From: Chiloscyllium plagiosum
Taxonomy: Eukaryota
Direction of reading: 5' to 3'
Assembly: GCF_004010195.1 (NCBI RefSeq)
Contig: NC_057718.1
Coordinates: 71,452,087 to 71,508,539, forward strand
Length of the DNA stretch: 56,453 nucleotides
The stretch's first letter is position 1, and each line of letters starts with the position of its first letter. The notes beneath the pieces were generated by a model. It did no database searches, was not told where the DNA came from, and saw only the letters and a program-made list of their open reading frames with translations. Shown piece after piece: positions 5,646-55,412 of this stretch. A program made the translations under genes and the position numbers.

Positions 5646-5710
5646 GAATCATAGAATTCCTACAGTGTGAAAACAGACCCTTTGACTGAACAATTCCACA
5701 CCAACACTCG

Positions 5711-5918
5711 TCATGATTTGGAGATGCCGGCGTTGGACTGGGTGTACATAGTTAAAAATCACACAACATCAGGTTATAGTCCAACAGGTTTATTTGGAAG
5801 CACTAATGTTCAGAGCTAGTTGTACAACCACCTGATGAAGGAGCAGTGCTCTGAAAGCTAGTTCTTCCAAATAAACATGTTGGACTATAACCTGGTGTTG
5901 TGTGATTTTTAACTTTGT
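5711..5918. mobile_element. Penelope pLTR-derived fold-back element with a minimal hammerhead-like core
   Basis: About 75-bp inverted arms plus an about 31-nt extension on the left. Degenerate 13-bp TSD (acaccaacactcg 5698-5710 / acactgacacttg 5919-5931). Confidence 0.75.
5829..5863 (+). ncRNA. Minimal type I hammerhead ribozyme-like motif
   Basis: cac CTGATGA A GGAGC agt GCTCT GAAA GC TA gt: CUGAUGA and GAAA cores, 5-bp stem II (one G-U), palindromic AGCU stem III, UA cleavage site. Confidence 0.65.
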
Positions 5919-6863
5919 ACACTGACACTTGGAAGAGTAATCCACCCAGAGCCATTCCTCTGCCCTATTATCTTATATTTACCCCTAACTAATGCACCTA
6001 ATCTACACATCCCTGAAGGCTATGGGCAATTTAGCACAGCCAATTCACCTAACCTGCACATCTTTTGGGTTTGGAAGAGATTTACTATGGTGTTGCTAGG
6101 AGTGAAGGGTTTGAATTATAAAAAAACGCTGAATAATCTGGTACCTTTTTCACTGGAGCTTAGGAAGTTGAGGTATGAGCTTTCAGGGAATTCAGCCCCA
6201 GCCTATTCAGCCTCTTCCTATAGCTGAAACTCTCCAACTCTGGCTATATCCCTCCAAATCCTTTCAAGTTTCACAACATCCTTCCTATCGGAGGGAGACC
6301 AGAATTATATACAACATTTCAAAGTGGCCTAGCTAATGTCCTGTATAGCCGCAACATCAACTCTCAACTCTTATACTCAATGCTCTGTCCAGTAAAGGAA
6401 AGCATATGAAATGCCTTCTTCATTATCCTATCTATCTAAGACTCCACTTTCAAAGATCTATGAACCTGCACTCCAAGATGTCTTTGTGCAGCAATGCTCC
6501 CCAGGACCTTACTATTAAGTGCCTAAGTCCTGTCCTGATTCGCCTTTCCAAAATGCAGCCCCTCACATTTATCTACATTGTGAGAATTTGGTCAGATCCA
6601 GTTGGACTCAGAGGTAACCTATTTGCTGTACACTACATCTCCAATTTTGGTGTCATCTGCAAACTTACTAACTATACATCCAAATCATTTATATAAATGA
6701 TGAGAAACAGTGGACCCAGCACTGATCCTTGTGGCACACAACTGGTCACAGGGCTCCAGCCACAGAAGCAACCCTCCACTACCAGCCTCTGTCTTCTACC
6801 TTCAAGCTGAAAATGTGTTGCTGGAAAAGCGCAGCAGGTCAGGCAGCAACCAATGAGCAGGAG

Positions 6864-6899
6864 AATAGACGTTTCGGGCATGAGCCCTTCTTCAGGAAT
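6864..6899 (-). ncRNA. Minimal hammerhead ribozyme-like motif (minus-strand arm)
   Basis: Minus strand: attc CTGAAGA A GGGC tcat GCCC GAAA CGTC tatt. Confidence 0.6.
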
Positions 6900-7120
6900 G
6901 AGGAAAGTGTGCCAAGCAGGCCAAGATAAAAGGTAGGGAGGAGGGACTTGGGGGAGGGGTGTTGGAAATGTGATAGGTGGAAGGAGGTTAAGGTGAGGGT
7001 GATAGGCCGGAGTGGTGGTGGGGCCGGAGAGGTCAGGAAGAAGATTGCAGGTTAGGAAGGTGGAGCATTTTCAATGCCCCTCCCTACCTTTTGACTTAGC
7101 CTGCTTGGCACACTTTCCTC

Positions 7121-7156
7121 ATTCCTGAAGAAGGGCTCATGCCCGAAACGTCGATT
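7121..7156 (+). ncRNA. Minimal hammerhead ribozyme-like motif (plus-strand arm)
   Basis: attc CTGAAGA A GGGC tcat GCCC GAAA CGTC gatt: CUGANGA/GAAA core, 4-bp GC stem II, palindromic ACGU stem III, GUC site. Confidence 0.7.
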
Positions 7157-7453
7157 CTCCTGCTCATTGGATGCTGCCTGACCTGCTGCGCTTTTCCAGC
7201 AACACATTTTCAGCTCTGATCTCCAGCATCTGCAGTCCTCACTTTCTCCTTCTACCTTCGAGACAGTTTTGTATCCAAATGGCTAGTTCTTCCTGTATCT
7301 ATGTGATCTAACCTTGCTAACGAGTCTAGAATGAGGAACCTTATCGAATGCCTTACAAAACTCCATATAGATCATGTCCACCGCTCTGCCCTCATCAATC
7401 CTTTTCGTTACTTCTTCAAAAATCTCAATCAAGTTCATGAGACATGACTTCCT

Positions 7454-17933: not shown

Positions 17934-18079
17934 TCATTTCATGGCAGCTTTCAGTCTCTCTCCTACATTCTCCCAGTTGATAACATTCCAGATGGCTTTT
18001 AGATAGTCACCCCGTACATTCTTGTATTGCAGATAGTACGCATGCTCCCACACATCAATTCCAAGAAGGGGAATTAGAC
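17934..18079 (-). CDS. SOD2: SOD2 exon 5 (last coding exon)
   Basis: ttcag|GT CTA ATT...: (G)[47 protein letters not shown]. Contains the DVWEHAYY signature; 146 coding bp, phase 1. Confidence 0.97.
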
Positions 18080-18605
18080 CTGAAACACGTGAAAGGACAG
18101 CTTCAGTCAATCTATTCAAAAAACTTCGCATTAGCAGATTTTCAATAATTTCAGATGCAAATCCTTTACAGAAACAAATGTCATTGCATACGTATTTGTA
18201 AATATATGAGAAACAGGATTTGAAAAGCTAACTCCCAATGAAGAGGCACACTGGACCAAAAAGCCACTGCGTGTGGCGTCCTTTTCATCAGCATGGTAAA
18301 TTATAGGCTGTTATTTCTATCACGAGGCACAGAAATACCAGGCATCATTCAAAGGAAAATATAACAGATAAATAATAAATGCCAGTAATAAAAGACTGTT
18401 ATGGGTCAGGACTTTTATCAGGAAGACAATATTATTAATACAATATAAATGAAAGAGTGGGAGCTTATGAAATATGATATAATGACAAAGATCCCTTGAG
18501 TATGCTTTTTTGATAATTTGATTACTAACACAGCTGTAATGTCCCAATCCAAAAGTTTTAAATACTTCTGAATCCTATCCAGAGAGAGAGAGACGGAGAG
18601 AGAGG

Positions 18606-43569: not shown

Positions 43570-43695
43570 AATTCAAAAAGCAGATGCTAGAAATCACAAT
43601 GACACATAAATTGCGGAAAGTGCTTAACAGGTCTGGCAGAACGTGTTGGAGAAACGCAAATTAACATCTTGGGTCCAGTTATCCATCCTCAAGAC
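43570..43695 (-). mobile_element. Degenerate Penelope pLTR remnant about 40 bp from the SOD2 exon 2 donor
   Basis: gcagatgctagaaatc...caggtctggcag...ttaacatcttgggtccag resembles other pLTR arms. Confidence 0.5.
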
Positions 43696-43732
43696 AGATC
43701 AGCAAATTTCTGTTTTTGTTGCATATGCTTAC

Positions 43733-43935
43733 CTTTGGCCAAAGCCTCAGCATACTGCTCTTCTGTGATATTTAAGTTATTAACATAGGTAGCATGATGC
43801 TTGTTATGGTGCAGCTGCATTATTTCCGCACTAATGTGTGGCTCCAATGCACCATAGTCAAAAGGAAGATCAGGCAGTGTGTGTTTTTGTCTGGAGGCTA
43901 AACAATGAAAAGCTGTAGAAATTTTGGAGAAACAT
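43733..43935 (-). CDS. SOD2: SOD2 exon 2
   Basis: tgcag|A TGT...GCC AAA G|gtaag: (R)[67 protein letters not shown](G), 203 bp. Confidence 0.97.
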
Positions 43936-44021
43936 CTGCATGAAAAAGACAAGTGAAAGTTAGCCAAAATAAAAACAGATTTTCAATGCATGTTAAATTT
44001 TGAAACCATTGACAGTTATGG

Positions 44022-48118: not shown

Positions 48119-48845
48119 GCTATAGTTTGAAGTAGACCGGCAGGAGGCTGGAAGAACACAGCAAGCCACGAAGCATCAGGAGGTGCAGAAATCGATGTTT
48201 TGGGTGTAACCCTTCAGGACTGGGGGTGGTGTGGGGGGGAGATAAAGTGGGAGGCGGAGGCAGGGTGTTGAAGTGACCCAGGTTGGGCTAACAAGTCAAA
48301 AGGTGTGGTGCTGGAAAAGCACAGCCGGTCAGGCAGCATCCGAGGAGCAGGAGCAGGACGCTGTCTGAGACTGTGCTTTTCCAACACCACACATTTTGAC
48401 TCTAATCTCCAGCATCTGCAGTCCTCACTTTCGCCTTGATTAGAAACAAAAAAAATGCAGATGTTGGAATCCAAAGTAGACAAGCAGGAGGCTGGAAGAA
48501 CACAGCAAGCCAGGCAGCTTCAGGAGGTGGAGAAATCGATGTTTTGGGTGTAACCCTTCAGGACTGGGGGTGGTGTGGGGGGGAGATAAAGTGGGAGGCG
48601 GAGGCAGGGTGTTGAAGTGGGGATAGGTGAAGACAAGTAGAGGGTACAACATGGTTGGTTGATGGGGGAATGAATCCAGTTGTTGGCAGGGAGCTGTGGA
48701 AGGGAGGCGGATGGGGAAGGAAGTTATTTGAAATTGGAGAACTCAAAGTTGAGTCCTCCAGGCTGTAGGGTGCCCAGGTGGAAGTTAAGGTGTTGTTCTT
48801 CCAACAGGAGCTGTGGTTTGTTTTGGCAATGGAGGAAGCCAAGGC
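48119..48845 (-). mobile_element. Tandem Penelope pLTR copies (about 48132-48276 and 48473-48618) with a fold-back element between (about 48294-48438)
   Basis: About 145-bp near-identical direct repeats with a degenerate CTGA..GGG TTAC ACCC AAAAC motif on the minus strand. Confidence 0.75.
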
Positions 48846-49892
48846 TGGCCTTCAGACCCTGGCTTCTTTCCTTCCAATAGACCCATCCAGTCTCCCTCCA
48901 CCAATACCCTCCTCTACCTCGCCGAACTGCTCCTCACCCACAATAACCTTTCCTTTAAATCTTCCCATTTCCTCGAATCAAGGACTTGGCCATGGGTACC
49001 CGGATGGGCCCCAGCTATGCTTGTTTCTTTGTCAGCTATATCGAACAGTCCCTGTTTAGTACCTGCACTGTACCCCAACTTTTCCGCAGTTACATCGATG
49101 ACTGCATCGGGTGCAGCGTCCTGCACCCAGGGCTGAACTGGAGCAGTTCATCGATTTCGCCCACAACTTCAACCCCACCCTCAAATTCACTTGGTCCATC
49201 TCAGACACCACCCTTCCCTTTCTTGTCCTCACCATTTCCATCTCCGGCGACGGTCACCAGATGGACGTATACTACAAAACTGCAGACTCCCACCCAGTAT
49301 CCTGCAAGAACTCCATCCTGTTCTCCCAATGCCTCCGCCTCCACCACATCTGCTCAGCGAGGAGACATTCCACTCACAAGCATCCCAGATGTCCACCTAT
49401 TTTGAACAACTTGCTTTTCCTCTCACTGACATCCAGACAGCCCTCTGCCACACCACCTCCATTCCCCATTCCACCGCTCTAAACCACCCCTGCCAACGCA
49501 ATAAAGATCGAGTCCCCTTTGTCCTCACCTACCACACATAGTCTTTGCATCCAACGCATAATCCTTAAGTACTTCCATCAACTTCAAATAGACTCCACCC
49601 CCAAGAATATCTTCCCCTCCCTACCCCTCTATGCCTTCTGCAAGGACCGTTCCCTCTGATAGTCCTTGGTTCACGCCACCCCTGCCACTGAACGCCCAGA
49701 TACCTTCCCTGCAACCAGAAAAGATGCAAAACCTGCCAGTACACCCCCTCCCTCACCTCCATCCAGGGCCTGATGAAAAGCTTTCACCCAAAATGTAGAT
49801 TTTCCTGCTCCTCGGATGATGCCTGACCTGCTGTGCTTTTCCAGTGCCACACTGTTGACTCTGATCTTCAGCATCTGCAATACTCACTTTTG
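48846..49892 (+). mobile_element. Penelope-like element RT fragment and pLTR
   Basis: MAMGTRMGPSYAC...RSYIDD, LPFL, VYYKTADSH, SQCLRLHHICS. The pLTR begins cctgatgaa at about 49769. Confidence 0.9.
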
Positions 49893-49899
49893 CGATGTG

Positions 49900-50440
49900 A
49901 TGATAAGGCCTGGCATGTAGGGTTTGTGGGTAAGGACATGGAAGGAGGTGATCTGGACTGGACATTGAGGCCAGAAGGTTGTGAGGCTCCCAAGCAAAAA
50001 ATTAGGTGTTTTTCTTCCAGCTGGTGCCGAGCAAGACATGGTGGAGTGTTGAAATAGCATGCAACCGGAAGCTTGGTAGACTTTCAGGACAGAATGTTGG
50101 TGTTTTGCAAAATAGTCACCCAGTCTTGTGCTTAGTTTCCCCAGTGTTGAGGAAACCACATTGCAAGCAGTAAATGAAGTGCAGGTAAATTGTTACTCCA
50201 AGTGGAAAGTGTGTCTGTGGCCATGGATAGTGAGGAGGGATGAAGTAAACTAGCAGGTGTTACACCATCTGAGATTGCATGGGAAGGTGCGGAGAGAGAT
50301 TGGGAGTGGAGGAGGAGTGGGCTAAGGGATCGTAGGTTTGAATGAGGGGGACCCAATTGCCGTTTTGGGAGGGAAGAGAAGAGGGGGAGGGCCCTATGAA
50401 CCATAATGAGGAACCCTGGATTGAGCAAGCAGGTAGGCCC
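49900..50440 (-). mobile_element. Degraded Penelope GIY-YIG-region fragment
   Basis: Similar in reverse to 32500-32950 (TLGK..TRLGDYF). Confidence 0.65.
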
Positions 50441-51509: not shown

Positions 51510-53059
51510 TCATGATAACCACCTAGATGGGGGATGAGAAAGGCGCTTCCAATTTATTCATAAGAATCTTACAGTCAGTACTTAAGCAAGTTATTGACGC
51601 ACAACATACTTTGATTATAACAACAAAAATCACTAGCCCAAGTTCCTCCCAGTAGCCATCCAAGCCAGCCATCTTAGGGCCTGGTCCAAAATTAACAGTT
51701 GGTTCCGAATAAACTCAATGGCATGGGTTATGATGTATGATTCATCTGTAACCTGGGTGATGTATCTGTCCCTCACAGTTGTACCCCAACCACCCCACTG
51801 GGCCAATAGATAGTCTACTGCATATCTGGTCTGTTGTGCCTTAACTTTGCCAATTCCTGATTAACTGTATCCAGTCTCCTGAGATGGTTAACCCACAAAT
51901 GAGGTAATTTAGGTGTTTTGCTGTCATCGTTCCCGCTGACCCCCCCCCAAGGGACAGCATCCCCAGGAACGTGTAGCTAAGGGAAGAACCTAGAGTCACT
52001 GGGTCCTTTCATTCTGCACAAAACTCTTGACTAATAGCTCTGGTTACTATTTTGTAAGGGGTAGGTGCCTTCTGAGGGCTCCTACTGTCCCTACAGCAAC
52101 AGGATGGGGAGATTGGGGTGGCTGTAGTAAGGGTCCCATTGAAAAGGAACACAAACCTTTATTTGGCCCGGAAGCATTTCACTGCTTGGTTATTGGCAGT
52201 CGCAAACTGTTTACATCTCAGTTTCTCTCCTAATTGGAGTTTTCTCCTGATCCGATCAGTTGGTAGTCATAAAAAGGATATGGCCAAAAGGCCGAGCTGA
52301 CATGTGTTCCATTGCAATATCCACAAATGAACTGCCTTCCTGTAGTAACATTTAAGCACCCTTCCTTGTCACAGGTGCGGGTGAATATTCCATTGCTCAC
52401 CTGGCAAAGCCTGCGGGCGCATTGTTTTTGCGTATAAGAGGTATTTGTGGGAACGAAAGCATAAGTACAGCCCCACCCGCCGTCCTGAGAAAGTGGATAG
52501 CTCATGGGATCATAGCAAGTTGTACCTCTGTAGCTAGGGGGCTAAATCTGTCAGCTCTACGCACAGTCCCAATGTCATCCTTTTAAACTTCCCGCTTTGA
52601 CCTACATGGGGCACCTGAAGTATCTATGTGAATAGGCTGGGGGGGGAGGGGGGGAGTTCACCCAGAAATGGGTACAAATAACACCTCTATGGACTGGACA
52701 AGTGGGTAACGTACAGTTCAATTACCATGGAGAAAGTAAGGACTGCAGATGCTGGAGATCAGAGCTGAAAAATTTGTTGCTGGAAAAGCGCTGCAGGTCA
52801 GGCAGCGTCCAAGGAGCAGGAGAATTGACGTTTCAGGCATAAGTCCTCCTGAAAAAGGGCTTCTGCCCGAAACGTCGATTCTCCTGCTCCTTGGATGCTG
52901 CCTGACCTGCTCTTTTCCAGCAACACATTTTTCAGTTCGATTACTATGCAAACGTATATGAGTCTTATAAAACAAATTGTCCTCTAGGCCTAACATTGTG
53001 ATGGCGGCCATGATACCGCAGAATGCAAGTGTCGTCTTTAGACCGTCTGAGGGGCCCAT
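51510..53059 (-). pseudogene. env: ERV env, disrupted
   Basis: Signal-peptide-like start MGPSDGLKTTLAFCGIMAAITMLG, Cys-rich SU (52230-52505), KIVTR/AI putative cleavage region, immunosuppressive-domain-like QQTRYAVDYLLAQWGG (51790-51836), and a hydrophobic TM segment. Confidence 0.8.
52730..52932 (-). mobile_element. Compact Penelope pLTR fold-back element inserted in env
   Basis: Same family as 6804-7248 in the opposite orientation. TSD cagttcaattaccatg (52714-52729) / cagttcgattactatg (52933-52948). Confidence 0.85.
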
Positions 53060-55412
53060 TGTCTAGACAGTCAGGTGGAGCCAGTGACTCTGGCCTTGGA
53101 CTTTTACTGCTGTTGGCATCTGCAGTTGCACCTGGAACTGTCCTTTTTACCGGTGGAATTGCCCCAAGCTTGGACAGTCTTTAATTAGCATAAGTTCTCC
53201 TGTTTGTAGTCTGGGGCTCACTCTGGCTGTCTGAATCTTGATCTGTCAGTGGTCCGAAGGCATGCTTGACCTGTGAGTGGAGAAACTTTAGGGACAATGT
53301 TAGCTGCTGAAAGTATCTCTGTATTTCCTCTCCCAAAACATTTACGTCTGCATGGTTGGGTGGGTTGGTCTGTGTTTGCATCCCTAGGGGTCCATCTGGG
53401 TCGGCCATAAATTATTTCGACTGTGTGTGGTAATCCTCGTGATACATGGCTAAAAGTAGGACCTTCAATCAGTTGAGGCCTGTTTCAGACATTATCTTAG
53501 TTTGGTTTTAAGAGTCTTGTTCACTCTTTCCAGTATTCTTGCCGCCTGAGGGTGGTAAGCGCAACAGAATTGCTGCTGGATATCACACATAGCTCGTTGA
53601 TTTTCCCTACACAGTGGGGGCCATTGTCTGAACTAAGATGCCGAGGCACTCCAAATCTCGGTATGATCTCTGTCAGGAGTAATTTTACCACCGTTGAGGC
53701 TTTATTATTAGTGGTCGGAAAGGCTTCAATCCATCTTCTAAATACGCCACTAATAACAAGACAATGCTTATAACAATGTATGCACGGCAATTCAATGAAA
53801 TCAAGCTGGATGCCTTTGAATGGACCACCAGGCAAGTGTGTTCTCCCTGTTACATAGCACACCCCTTGACCAGCATTGTTTTGCTAGCATGTTAAACATG
53901 ATCTGACACGCTTCTGGGCTGCCTCGGCCAGTCCGGTGTGTCATCAGGTACGCAATATGATATTACTCATTCCCTCCTTGCCAAGATGGTATCAGCATGA
54001 AGACAGACAGAAAAAAAAACCCACACTGCAAACTGACACAGCAGTGAACCTGCATAGTTATTGCTTTTGCTGTTTGAATTCATGTATTGTTGGACATCAG
54101 AGTGCGTCAGGGAAGTTAACAAACAGTGAAAATCACAGTTTATCAGCATTGGTAATAAAACATCAGGTGTACATACCTGGCCAGCTGGGGTGATCCAGAG
54201 GCCTTTTGATGCAGAGTGCGAACACCCATGCATCTTCCATATTTGTTTTTCTGGGTCGGGGTGCCCCCCTGAAAACACTGCACAGTGACAATGTCTGGTA
54301 TGCATGTTGTTTTTGAGGCAGATGATCGATGTAGTGCCTGCTGGTTCCCAGAGGACAATAGAATTGAGAGCTGTTGCCGCATCTCTGGCAGCTCGATCAG
54401 CTCTGGTATTGCCATTACTGATGTCTGTATTGTCCGTTACATGGGCAGCACACTTGATAATGGCCATTGCTTGGGGAGGAGGATGGCTTTGAGAAGATTT
54501 TGGACATGCAGTGAGTCCTGAATAGGTGTCCCTGAAGAGGTCAGAAATCCGCGTTTTGATGATAGCTGGCCAAAGTTGTGCGACATGCCAAAAGCATACT
54601 GCTCGTCCATGTATAGATTTACTGATTTTCCTGTGGTCAGGACACAAGCCCATGTTAGAGCAAAGAGTTCTGCTTTCTGAGCAGATACTGGAGGATCGAA
54701 GGAGGGCAATTCTAAGGTGTCTGTGTGGTTCATGCTGCGTATTTTGAAAGGGGCACTCCTAAGGGTGATATGGAAGAACTGCTGTCCACAAAGAGGGTAA
54801 AATCTGGTGTGGGTAATGGGGTGTCTACAAGGTCTGGTTGAGGGGAGGTTAAGAAGTAGTTGTGCAAAAGGAAATCATGGTGGGGGGGTGGGGTTCTGAG
54901 AGCTCCTCTGGAGGGGTACACAGTTGAGCAGGCGGAGAAGGTCAGGGGGGTTATTGAGTAGGGCTACTTCGTAATGGCTAAGTCAAGCTTGTGTAAGGTG
55001 TTGGGTCTGATGGGAAGTTAGGAGGGCTACAATGGCATGTGACGAATAGATAATCGGCTTTTTGGAGAGTAATATTGAAAATGGCCATGACGAGAGTAGA
55101 TAGCTGGGAGAATTTGTCAGCAGGGTGGGAGGTCCATGGTGACAGGGTCAAGGCTTGGCTCTTGTGATCCTTGTGGGTTTGGGTTAAAGCAACAGTTGCA
55201 CAGTCCTCTCGGATACATGCATACAACTGGAAGAGCTTGTCTTCCGAGTGTTGGGCTCTTGCCAGGGCCGTTTTTAATTCAGTGAAAGCTAACTTTTGTT
55301 CTTTTAGTGTGAAGGTGTTTGAAGCCTTGTTTGAGGCCAAAGAGGTTAATTGGTTGGTGAGTAATTTTATGTTAGGGAGCCACTATCGGCAGTAGTTAAC
55401 TAGGCCCAAAAA
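53060..55412 (-). pseudogene. pol: ERV pol (RT thumb/tether, RNase H, integrase), disrupted; 5' part cut off by a CR1
   Basis: FLGLVNYCR, LFVDSSS, SAQKAELFALT, IIKCAAH, GNTRADRAA, QLDFIELP...WIEAFPT...IIPRFGVP..LSSDNGPH; class I (gamma/epsilon-like) style. Confidence 0.92.
53999..54140 (+). mobile_element. Isolated internal CR1 5'UTR segment inserted in ERV pol
   Basis: Similar to about 55655-55790. Flanked by a 9-bp direct repeat tatcagcat (53990-53998 / 54141-54149). Confidence 0.8.

Follow-up and report, generated by a model that had tools for sequence, protein, structure and literature searches.

Degraded LINE reverse-transcriptase frames crowd the window analysed here, a stretch of 56,453 nt from Chiloscyllium plagiosum. 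An iron/manganese superoxide dismutase gene has exons at 43689-43982 and 17934-18227 (minus strand), and an LTR-type retroelement has left broken integrase and pol-like frames (Pfam rve) at 53521-55382 on the minus strand. About 12 kb downstream of the last superoxide dismutase coding exon there is a hairpin of two inverted arms with a hammerhead ribozyme motif near its centre. The parts of this hairpin are listed below, together with three hairpins of a second, unrelated family and the remnant of a Penelope-like retrotransposon (PLE) in the same window:

5698-5710, plus strand: left copy of the target-site duplication (TSD), 13 bp, inside a common host repeat, identical to the right copy at 10 of 13 positions
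5711-5741, minus strand: one-sided tail of PLE type, 31 nt, its outer end 93 nt beyond the predicted hammerhead cut
5742-5816, minus strand: long (tail-bearing) arm, an inverted 5'-truncated pLTR copy
5817-5823, plus strand: centre filler of 7 nt, an inverted copy of 5824-5830 (6 of 7 positions)
5824-5922, plus strand: short arm, a 5'-truncated pLTR copy, beginning 8 nt ahead of the hammerhead core
5829-5863, plus strand: minimal type I hammerhead, stem I 5829-5831/5861-5863 with its third pair broken
5870-5910, plus strand: polyadenylation signal region, with AATAAA at 5870-5875, the poly(A) site at 5887-5890 and a GU/U-rich stretch at 5894-5910, as established at the level of the family
5919-5931, plus strand: right TSD copy, which overlaps the arm end by 4 nt at its start (microhomology)
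6804-7248, 52730-52931 and 48304-48432: hairpins of the second family, each with a one-sided tail
48864-49784 (frame to 49890): degraded PLE reverse-transcriptase ORF with a CxxxxCxxC linker

The two arms pair over 75 nt each (5742-5816 with 5848-5922) and match at 68 of the 75 positions, and the fold z-score of 5711-5918 was -12.2. Between the arms lie the 7-nt filler and then the 5' half of the hammerhead; the long arm starts within stem II and lacks CUGAUGA. The 31-nt tail is present on one side of the hairpin only, and its sequence was the continuation behind 5922 of other family copies in all four runs examined. Thus, the long inverted arms and the one-sided extension described in the initial annotation were both borne out. 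The same annotation had named a 208-bp hairpin retroelement. The hairpin itself is real, and its length is 208 or 212 nt because 5919-5922 (ACAC) is common to the arm and the TSD. However, there is no fixed unit of 208 bp, since the hairpin centres vary among copies. Strand switches made up 12 of the 15 joints listed (30 more exist) and fell at 12 different coordinate pairs; the inner end lay within 5824-5833 in 11 of these 12, in a stretch that cannot show joints further upstream. As a single case, the long arm carries three adjacent substitutions at 5806-5808, exactly at the palindromic helix III site.

The family was single-copy in the 56,453-nt window. At 16 viral-contig and 3 metagenome-contig loci the matches were just 16-37 nt long, and a family copy was seen in none of the 19. 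In sequencing runs it was very abundant: 58,999 and 44,471 contigs in two DNA runs, a further 7,894 contigs, and 2,098 of 12.96 million reads in RNA. Four of the 24 listed runs were matched to 5795-5955 at 80% likeness, and variants were taken from the best 40 of 67 rows. The contigs and reads were chosen for likeness to this copy, and none of them establishes this particular locus.

The 13-bp TSD is degenerate, as had been claimed, and its support by match score is within chance: the 13-mer scores 4, a value that 33 of 294 random placements also attained, and 14 of 294 attained the best score, 5. However, the host repeat gave a clearer answer. The window holds five uninterrupted host-repeat copies; each contains the homologous 13-mer once, and four of them continue straight into GAAG, which also follows the 13-mer at the right junction. 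The three positions at which the TSD copies disagree are all of CpG type. We accepted the TSD on these three grounds.

The hammerhead core is complete in its letters. C3 to A9 correspond to 5832-5838, an extra A follows at 5839, and G12 to A15.1 correspond to 5853-5856 (GAAA), followed by GC. Stem II has 5 bp (5840-5844/5848-5852) with the loop between, and the palindromic AGCU at 5856-5859 (15.2-16.2) allows a dimeric helix III, with U16.1 at 5859 and H17 at A5860. The predicted cut after A5860 is correctly placed. A strict hammerhead descriptor found two matches in the window (at 5832 and 7125) and none in 100 dinucleotide shuffles. No hammerhead family was reported by an Rfam search with E up to 1, which we take to reflect the limits of the models for minimal hammerheads and not as evidence against the motif. 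The description of the core as intact holds for its letters only: in the stems, the pair 10.1-11.1 is G-U and stem I is left with two pairs, the G found at 5863 in 74-83% of family sequences being a T here.

The motif agrees well with the minimal hammerheads (min-HHR) of metazoan PLE pLTRs, for which covariation and several families in one genome have been reported (Cervera and De la Pena, 2014; PMC4209133). It is of type I, it has CUGANGA, GAAA, UH and the unpaired extra nucleotide between 9 and 10.1, it is palindromic at 15.2-16.2, it lacks a loop 3 and its helix I is short, so the earlier reading as a PLE-type pLTR end with a palindromic helix III matches that description. Most min-HHR are solo copies from truncated PLEs, and pairs lie 100-700 bp apart on opposite strands (PMC4209133). 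Stem II has 5 bp here versus 7-8 bp in the Schistosoma families (PMC4209133), and this copy has G-U and a 2-bp stem I whereas min-HHR usually have G10.1-C11.1 and a helix I of 4-5 bp; the C at 5852 and the G at 5863 that are common in the family give G-C at 10.1-11.1 and a 3-bp stem I. In the parts of PMC4209133 consulted, sharks are not named among the min-HHR hosts.

The architecture of the whole insertion is also known from PLEs. An endonuclease-bearing (EN+) PLE unit has an adjacent inverted 5'-truncated copy and a tail of 30-40 bp at one end (PMC8557442), and units with a 31-bp tail, TSDs of 8-10 bp and junction palindromes have been described (Arkhipova et al., 2013; PMC3846280). The hairpin shows the adjacent inverted truncated copy, the one-sided tail of 30-40 bp and the short TSD. 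Like the units in PMC3846280 and PMC8557442, it consists of head-to-head truncated copies with a 31-nt tail, a short TSD and a junction palindrome. It is unlike them in having only about 100 nt per arm, with neither an ORF nor a direct pLTR, and its TSD is 13 bp versus 8-10 bp in the rotifer examples (PMC3846280).

The closest functional comparison is PAc, a Poseidon element of Anolis carolinensis (Frangieh et al., 2024; PMC11167929). Its hammerhead cuts at +26, and reverse transcription starts at +111-118, which is 85-92 nt past the cut, with two internal starts that bracket the tail. Both strands are cut and extended by the PAc protein, a predicted dimer; its template is uncut RNA, with no RNA ends seen at the cut site, and initiation in vitro is reported to occur without homology (PMC11167929). 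In our hairpin, as in PAc, the tail would lie between two internal starts at a similar distance from the cut, and the template was likely uncut. The PAc ORF begins in stem II, whereas here the ATG in the hammerhead core meets a stop at 5859-5861. Two further features set the hairpin apart from PAc: the poly(A) site used within the stretch from the cut to the starts of reverse transcription, and the microhomology of the short arm to the target.

The second family repeats this spacing in an unrelated sequence. The arms at 6804-7248 were said to be unlike those of the hairpin, and indeed no BLAST similarity was found between them. The distances from the cut to the arm end and to the tail end are 62 and 93 nt in the hairpin and 63 and 96 nt at 6804-7248. 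Clear TSDs of 14-16 bp flank 6804-7248 and 52730-52931, and no TSD was found at 48304-48432. A stretch of about 75 nt occurs twice around the last of these, at 48200-48275 and 48545-48620. At all three TSD-bearing hairpins (5919-5922, 52933-52935 and 6804-6806) the short-arm end and the TSD have 3-4 nt in common, one of the three cases being counted with the undecayed TSD copy.

A pLTR of the second family is joined, at its hammerhead core, directly after the degraded PLE reverse-transcriptase frame. This ORF is 62% identical to ray proteins with reverse-transcriptase or GIY-YIG domains, both Pfam matches being below the cut-off, and these ray proteins are the closest relatives of the PLE remnant in the window. 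Pfam gave no match in the three frames of the ORF itself, and the ESM Atlas offered a lead, PF26215, on 28% of one cluster. Craig et al. (PMC8557442) described a zinc-finger-like linker in Neptune and Nematis; in our own reading, the CxxxxCxxC motif is that linker. Endonuclease remnants lie at 49958-50288 and 48658-48840, on the strand opposite to the reverse-transcriptase frame. No reverse-transcriptase or endonuclease ORF linked to the hairpin's own family, which has a single copy in the window, was found, and the clade and enzyme of that family are for this reason read from its architecture.

Taken as a whole, we consider the hairpin to be very probably (roughly 0.85) a 3' end (pLTR) of an endonuclease-bearing PLE, inserted as a dead-on-arrival copy. 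It consists of two head-to-head, 5'-truncated copies of one end piece, likely made from uncut RNA during insertion, and its hammerhead, which would be inherited from the source element, is predicted to be masked. The RNA template was likely uncut because both arms extend past 5860. For such an insertion, we infer the order of priming, the enzyme and any cleavage. The PLE protein would nick both target strands 13 nt apart, and each free 3' end would prime reverse transcription inside the RNA. One priming event would occur where the tail ends, 93 nt beyond the cut of the hammerhead; the other, perhaps aided by the 4-nt microhomology, would lie 31 nt further in and thus 62 nt beyond the cut. In its microhomology to the target, the short arm resembles L1 twin priming. 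Both cDNAs would then stop near the front of the hammerhead and be joined through the 7-nt templated filler. The hammerhead would be selected in replicating source elements and would work there either as a dimer or together with the PLE protein; in inserted copies it would decay neutrally.

The main rival shares the PLE origin and differs in the mirror arm, which would come from snap-back self-priming of one cDNA or of an antisense template. The filler at 5817-5823 fits it: as an inverted copy (6 of 7), it would allow the locus to be a former perfect palindrome that lost 17 nt from one arm, and junction palindromes are interpreted as self-priming by Arkhipova et al. (2013; PMC3846280). However, the tail-bearing arm is longer by 31 nt, the outer ends correspond to the two internal starts of reverse transcription in PMC11167929, and the short-arm ends share nucleotides with the TSD in every one of the three hairpins. 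We therefore regard snap-back as rather unlikely and prefer two priming events on an uncut template.

A second alternative is that the hairpin is a non-autonomous unit, retrozyme-like or MITE-like, which is copied whole and whose RNA is processed by the hammerhead. The very high copy number in the two DNA runs and the narrow zone of inner ends, 5824-5833 in 11 of the 12 strand switches listed, would agree with this, and animal retrozymes do come from PLE ends (bioRxiv 10.64898/2026.07.22.740005). Non-LTR retrozymes consist of head-to-tail tandem units with at least two hammerheads and have been reported from one chondrichthyan genome (Li et al., bioRxiv 10.64898/2026.07.22.740005). The hairpin resembles them in being non-coding, in its type I hammerhead and in its kinship with the PLE pLTR. 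However, it has a single complete core without a head-to-tail tandem, its centres vary among copies, many reads continue upstream of 5824 (537 RNA reads in that direction), and the hammerhead fold is masked in the full hairpin. Copying as a whole unit is thus improbable. Retrozyme identity in the strict sense was rejected by definition, the hairpin having one complete core and an inverted arrangement. A MITE or foldback DNA transposon was rejected as well: symmetric inverted repeats and a fixed unit would be expected, and what we found was the 31-nt asymmetry and the variable centres.

The masking was computed. To force the hammerhead fold in the whole hairpin (5711-5922) costs 15.7 kcal/mol, and the pair probability of stem II is 0.0 in the whole hairpin versus 0.39-0.46 in a single arm. 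The dimer fold of this copy with helix III has -13.7 kcal/mol versus -22.0 kcal/mol for the best cofold, about 8 above the minimum. When transcribed whole, this copy is thus predicted to be locked out of the hammerhead fold by its mirror-image arm. In one poly(A) library no read ends were listed at 5860; the test is a weak one, since a 3' product would measure some 30 nt before its poly(A). That host selection kept the hammerhead of this copy as an active ribozyme at the locus is the least credible of the alternatives: all core letters are present and G12 and H17 are unchanged, but an untouched 13-nt core is expected in an arm with only some 4 differences from the family majority over 99 positions, the changes include the loss of stem I pair 3 and the G-U at 10.1-11.1, the fold is masked, and the dimer fold lies above the best cofold.

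Family variation allows selection in source elements and in individual copies to be considered separately. Loop II was variable at all three positions. H17 was changed to U in 8-18% and to C in 1-7% of the family, with G below 3% in both DNA runs. G12 was changed to A in 10-17% of family sequences, similar to G5848 at the neighbouring CpG (8-14%). At 5852, C was present in 44-66% of family sequences, giving a G-C pair at 10.1-11.1, and at 5863 the G in 74-83% (third stem I pair) was accompanied by A in 14-22%. This A, together with a subfamily loose-end consensus with T at 5829, suggests a possible swap from C-G to U-A, with no linkage of the two changes seen in single reads. Preferential conservation of CUGANGA/GAAA, which the initial annotation had set as a test, was not seen: in run X1, of the 11 invariant core positions one varied at 3% or more, and of the 59 arm positions downstream eight did (21 of the 24 places listed, counted by hand), and G12 was variable. 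At the CpGs of stem II and loop II (5852/5853), T exceeded A (34-56% versus 10-17%) in reads that are biased toward the T-bearing copy and in a stretch that holds no control CpG; this excess would fit selection on source elements.

The stem differences between the families, GGAGC/GCUCU against GGGC/GCCC, had been called compensatory. They are not: the G-U is a one-sided CpG-type change, C being the letter at 5852 in about half of the family, and a stem comparison across two families without sequence similarity is no covariation. The wobble at 5852 may predate the insertion and not reflect decay in place, because both arms share the T. Selection on the ribozyme fold, as proposed earlier, thus finds weak support for source elements and fails for individual copies, in which G12 is so often changed. 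The fold was likely kept in the sources, since two unrelated families share the core and the spacing and since the family variants are compatible with the fold.

The poly(A) site was seen in the RNA of the family. In run X21, 239 and 320 reads (559 in total) leave at 5887 and 5890 into poly(A), and the read depth in the poly(A) direction drops from about 1,120 to 410 in this one library. The site lies 12-15 nt past AATAAA and about 30 nt past the predicted cut, in DNA that is not rich in A. AATAAA itself starts 9 nt beyond the predicted cut, ahead of the two inferred priming sites; ATTAAA replaces it in 27-49% of family sequences. The long arm carries its AATAAA at 5794-5789 (minus strand). 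In the hairpin, the signal is predicted to be fully paired on either strand and, in single arms, to be largely open. No RNA with the exact hairpin stretch was listed and no listed piece spans 5795-5955, so the poly(A) result holds at the family level. In the second family (6804-7248), no AATAAA was found between the cut and the tail. In the literature searched no description of a poly(A) site for a PLE pLTR was found, and one may be in print; the parts of Kojima (2018) and Schostak (2008) consulted hold nothing on hairpins or polyadenylation.

A more speculative reading, which we hold to be less likely than not, is that 95 nt of this family would contain, one after the other, the hammerhead, a functional poly(A) site and two starts of reverse transcription. 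Only RNA that escapes both cleavage and polyadenylation would then be copied, and the abundant stubs would seed poly(A) sites in the genome. In fold-back copies, pairing of the arms would silence both the poly(A) signal and the ribozyme in either direction, and these copies could be the tolerated form.

The hairpin is one more copy of a class of element described from 2013 to 2024. A genome with so many copies makes selection on PLE hammerheads in source elements only a testable proposition. Furthermore, polyadenylation between the cut and the priming sites would limit the RNAs that can serve as template, and stubs with such a site would give host transcripts many alternative 3' ends.
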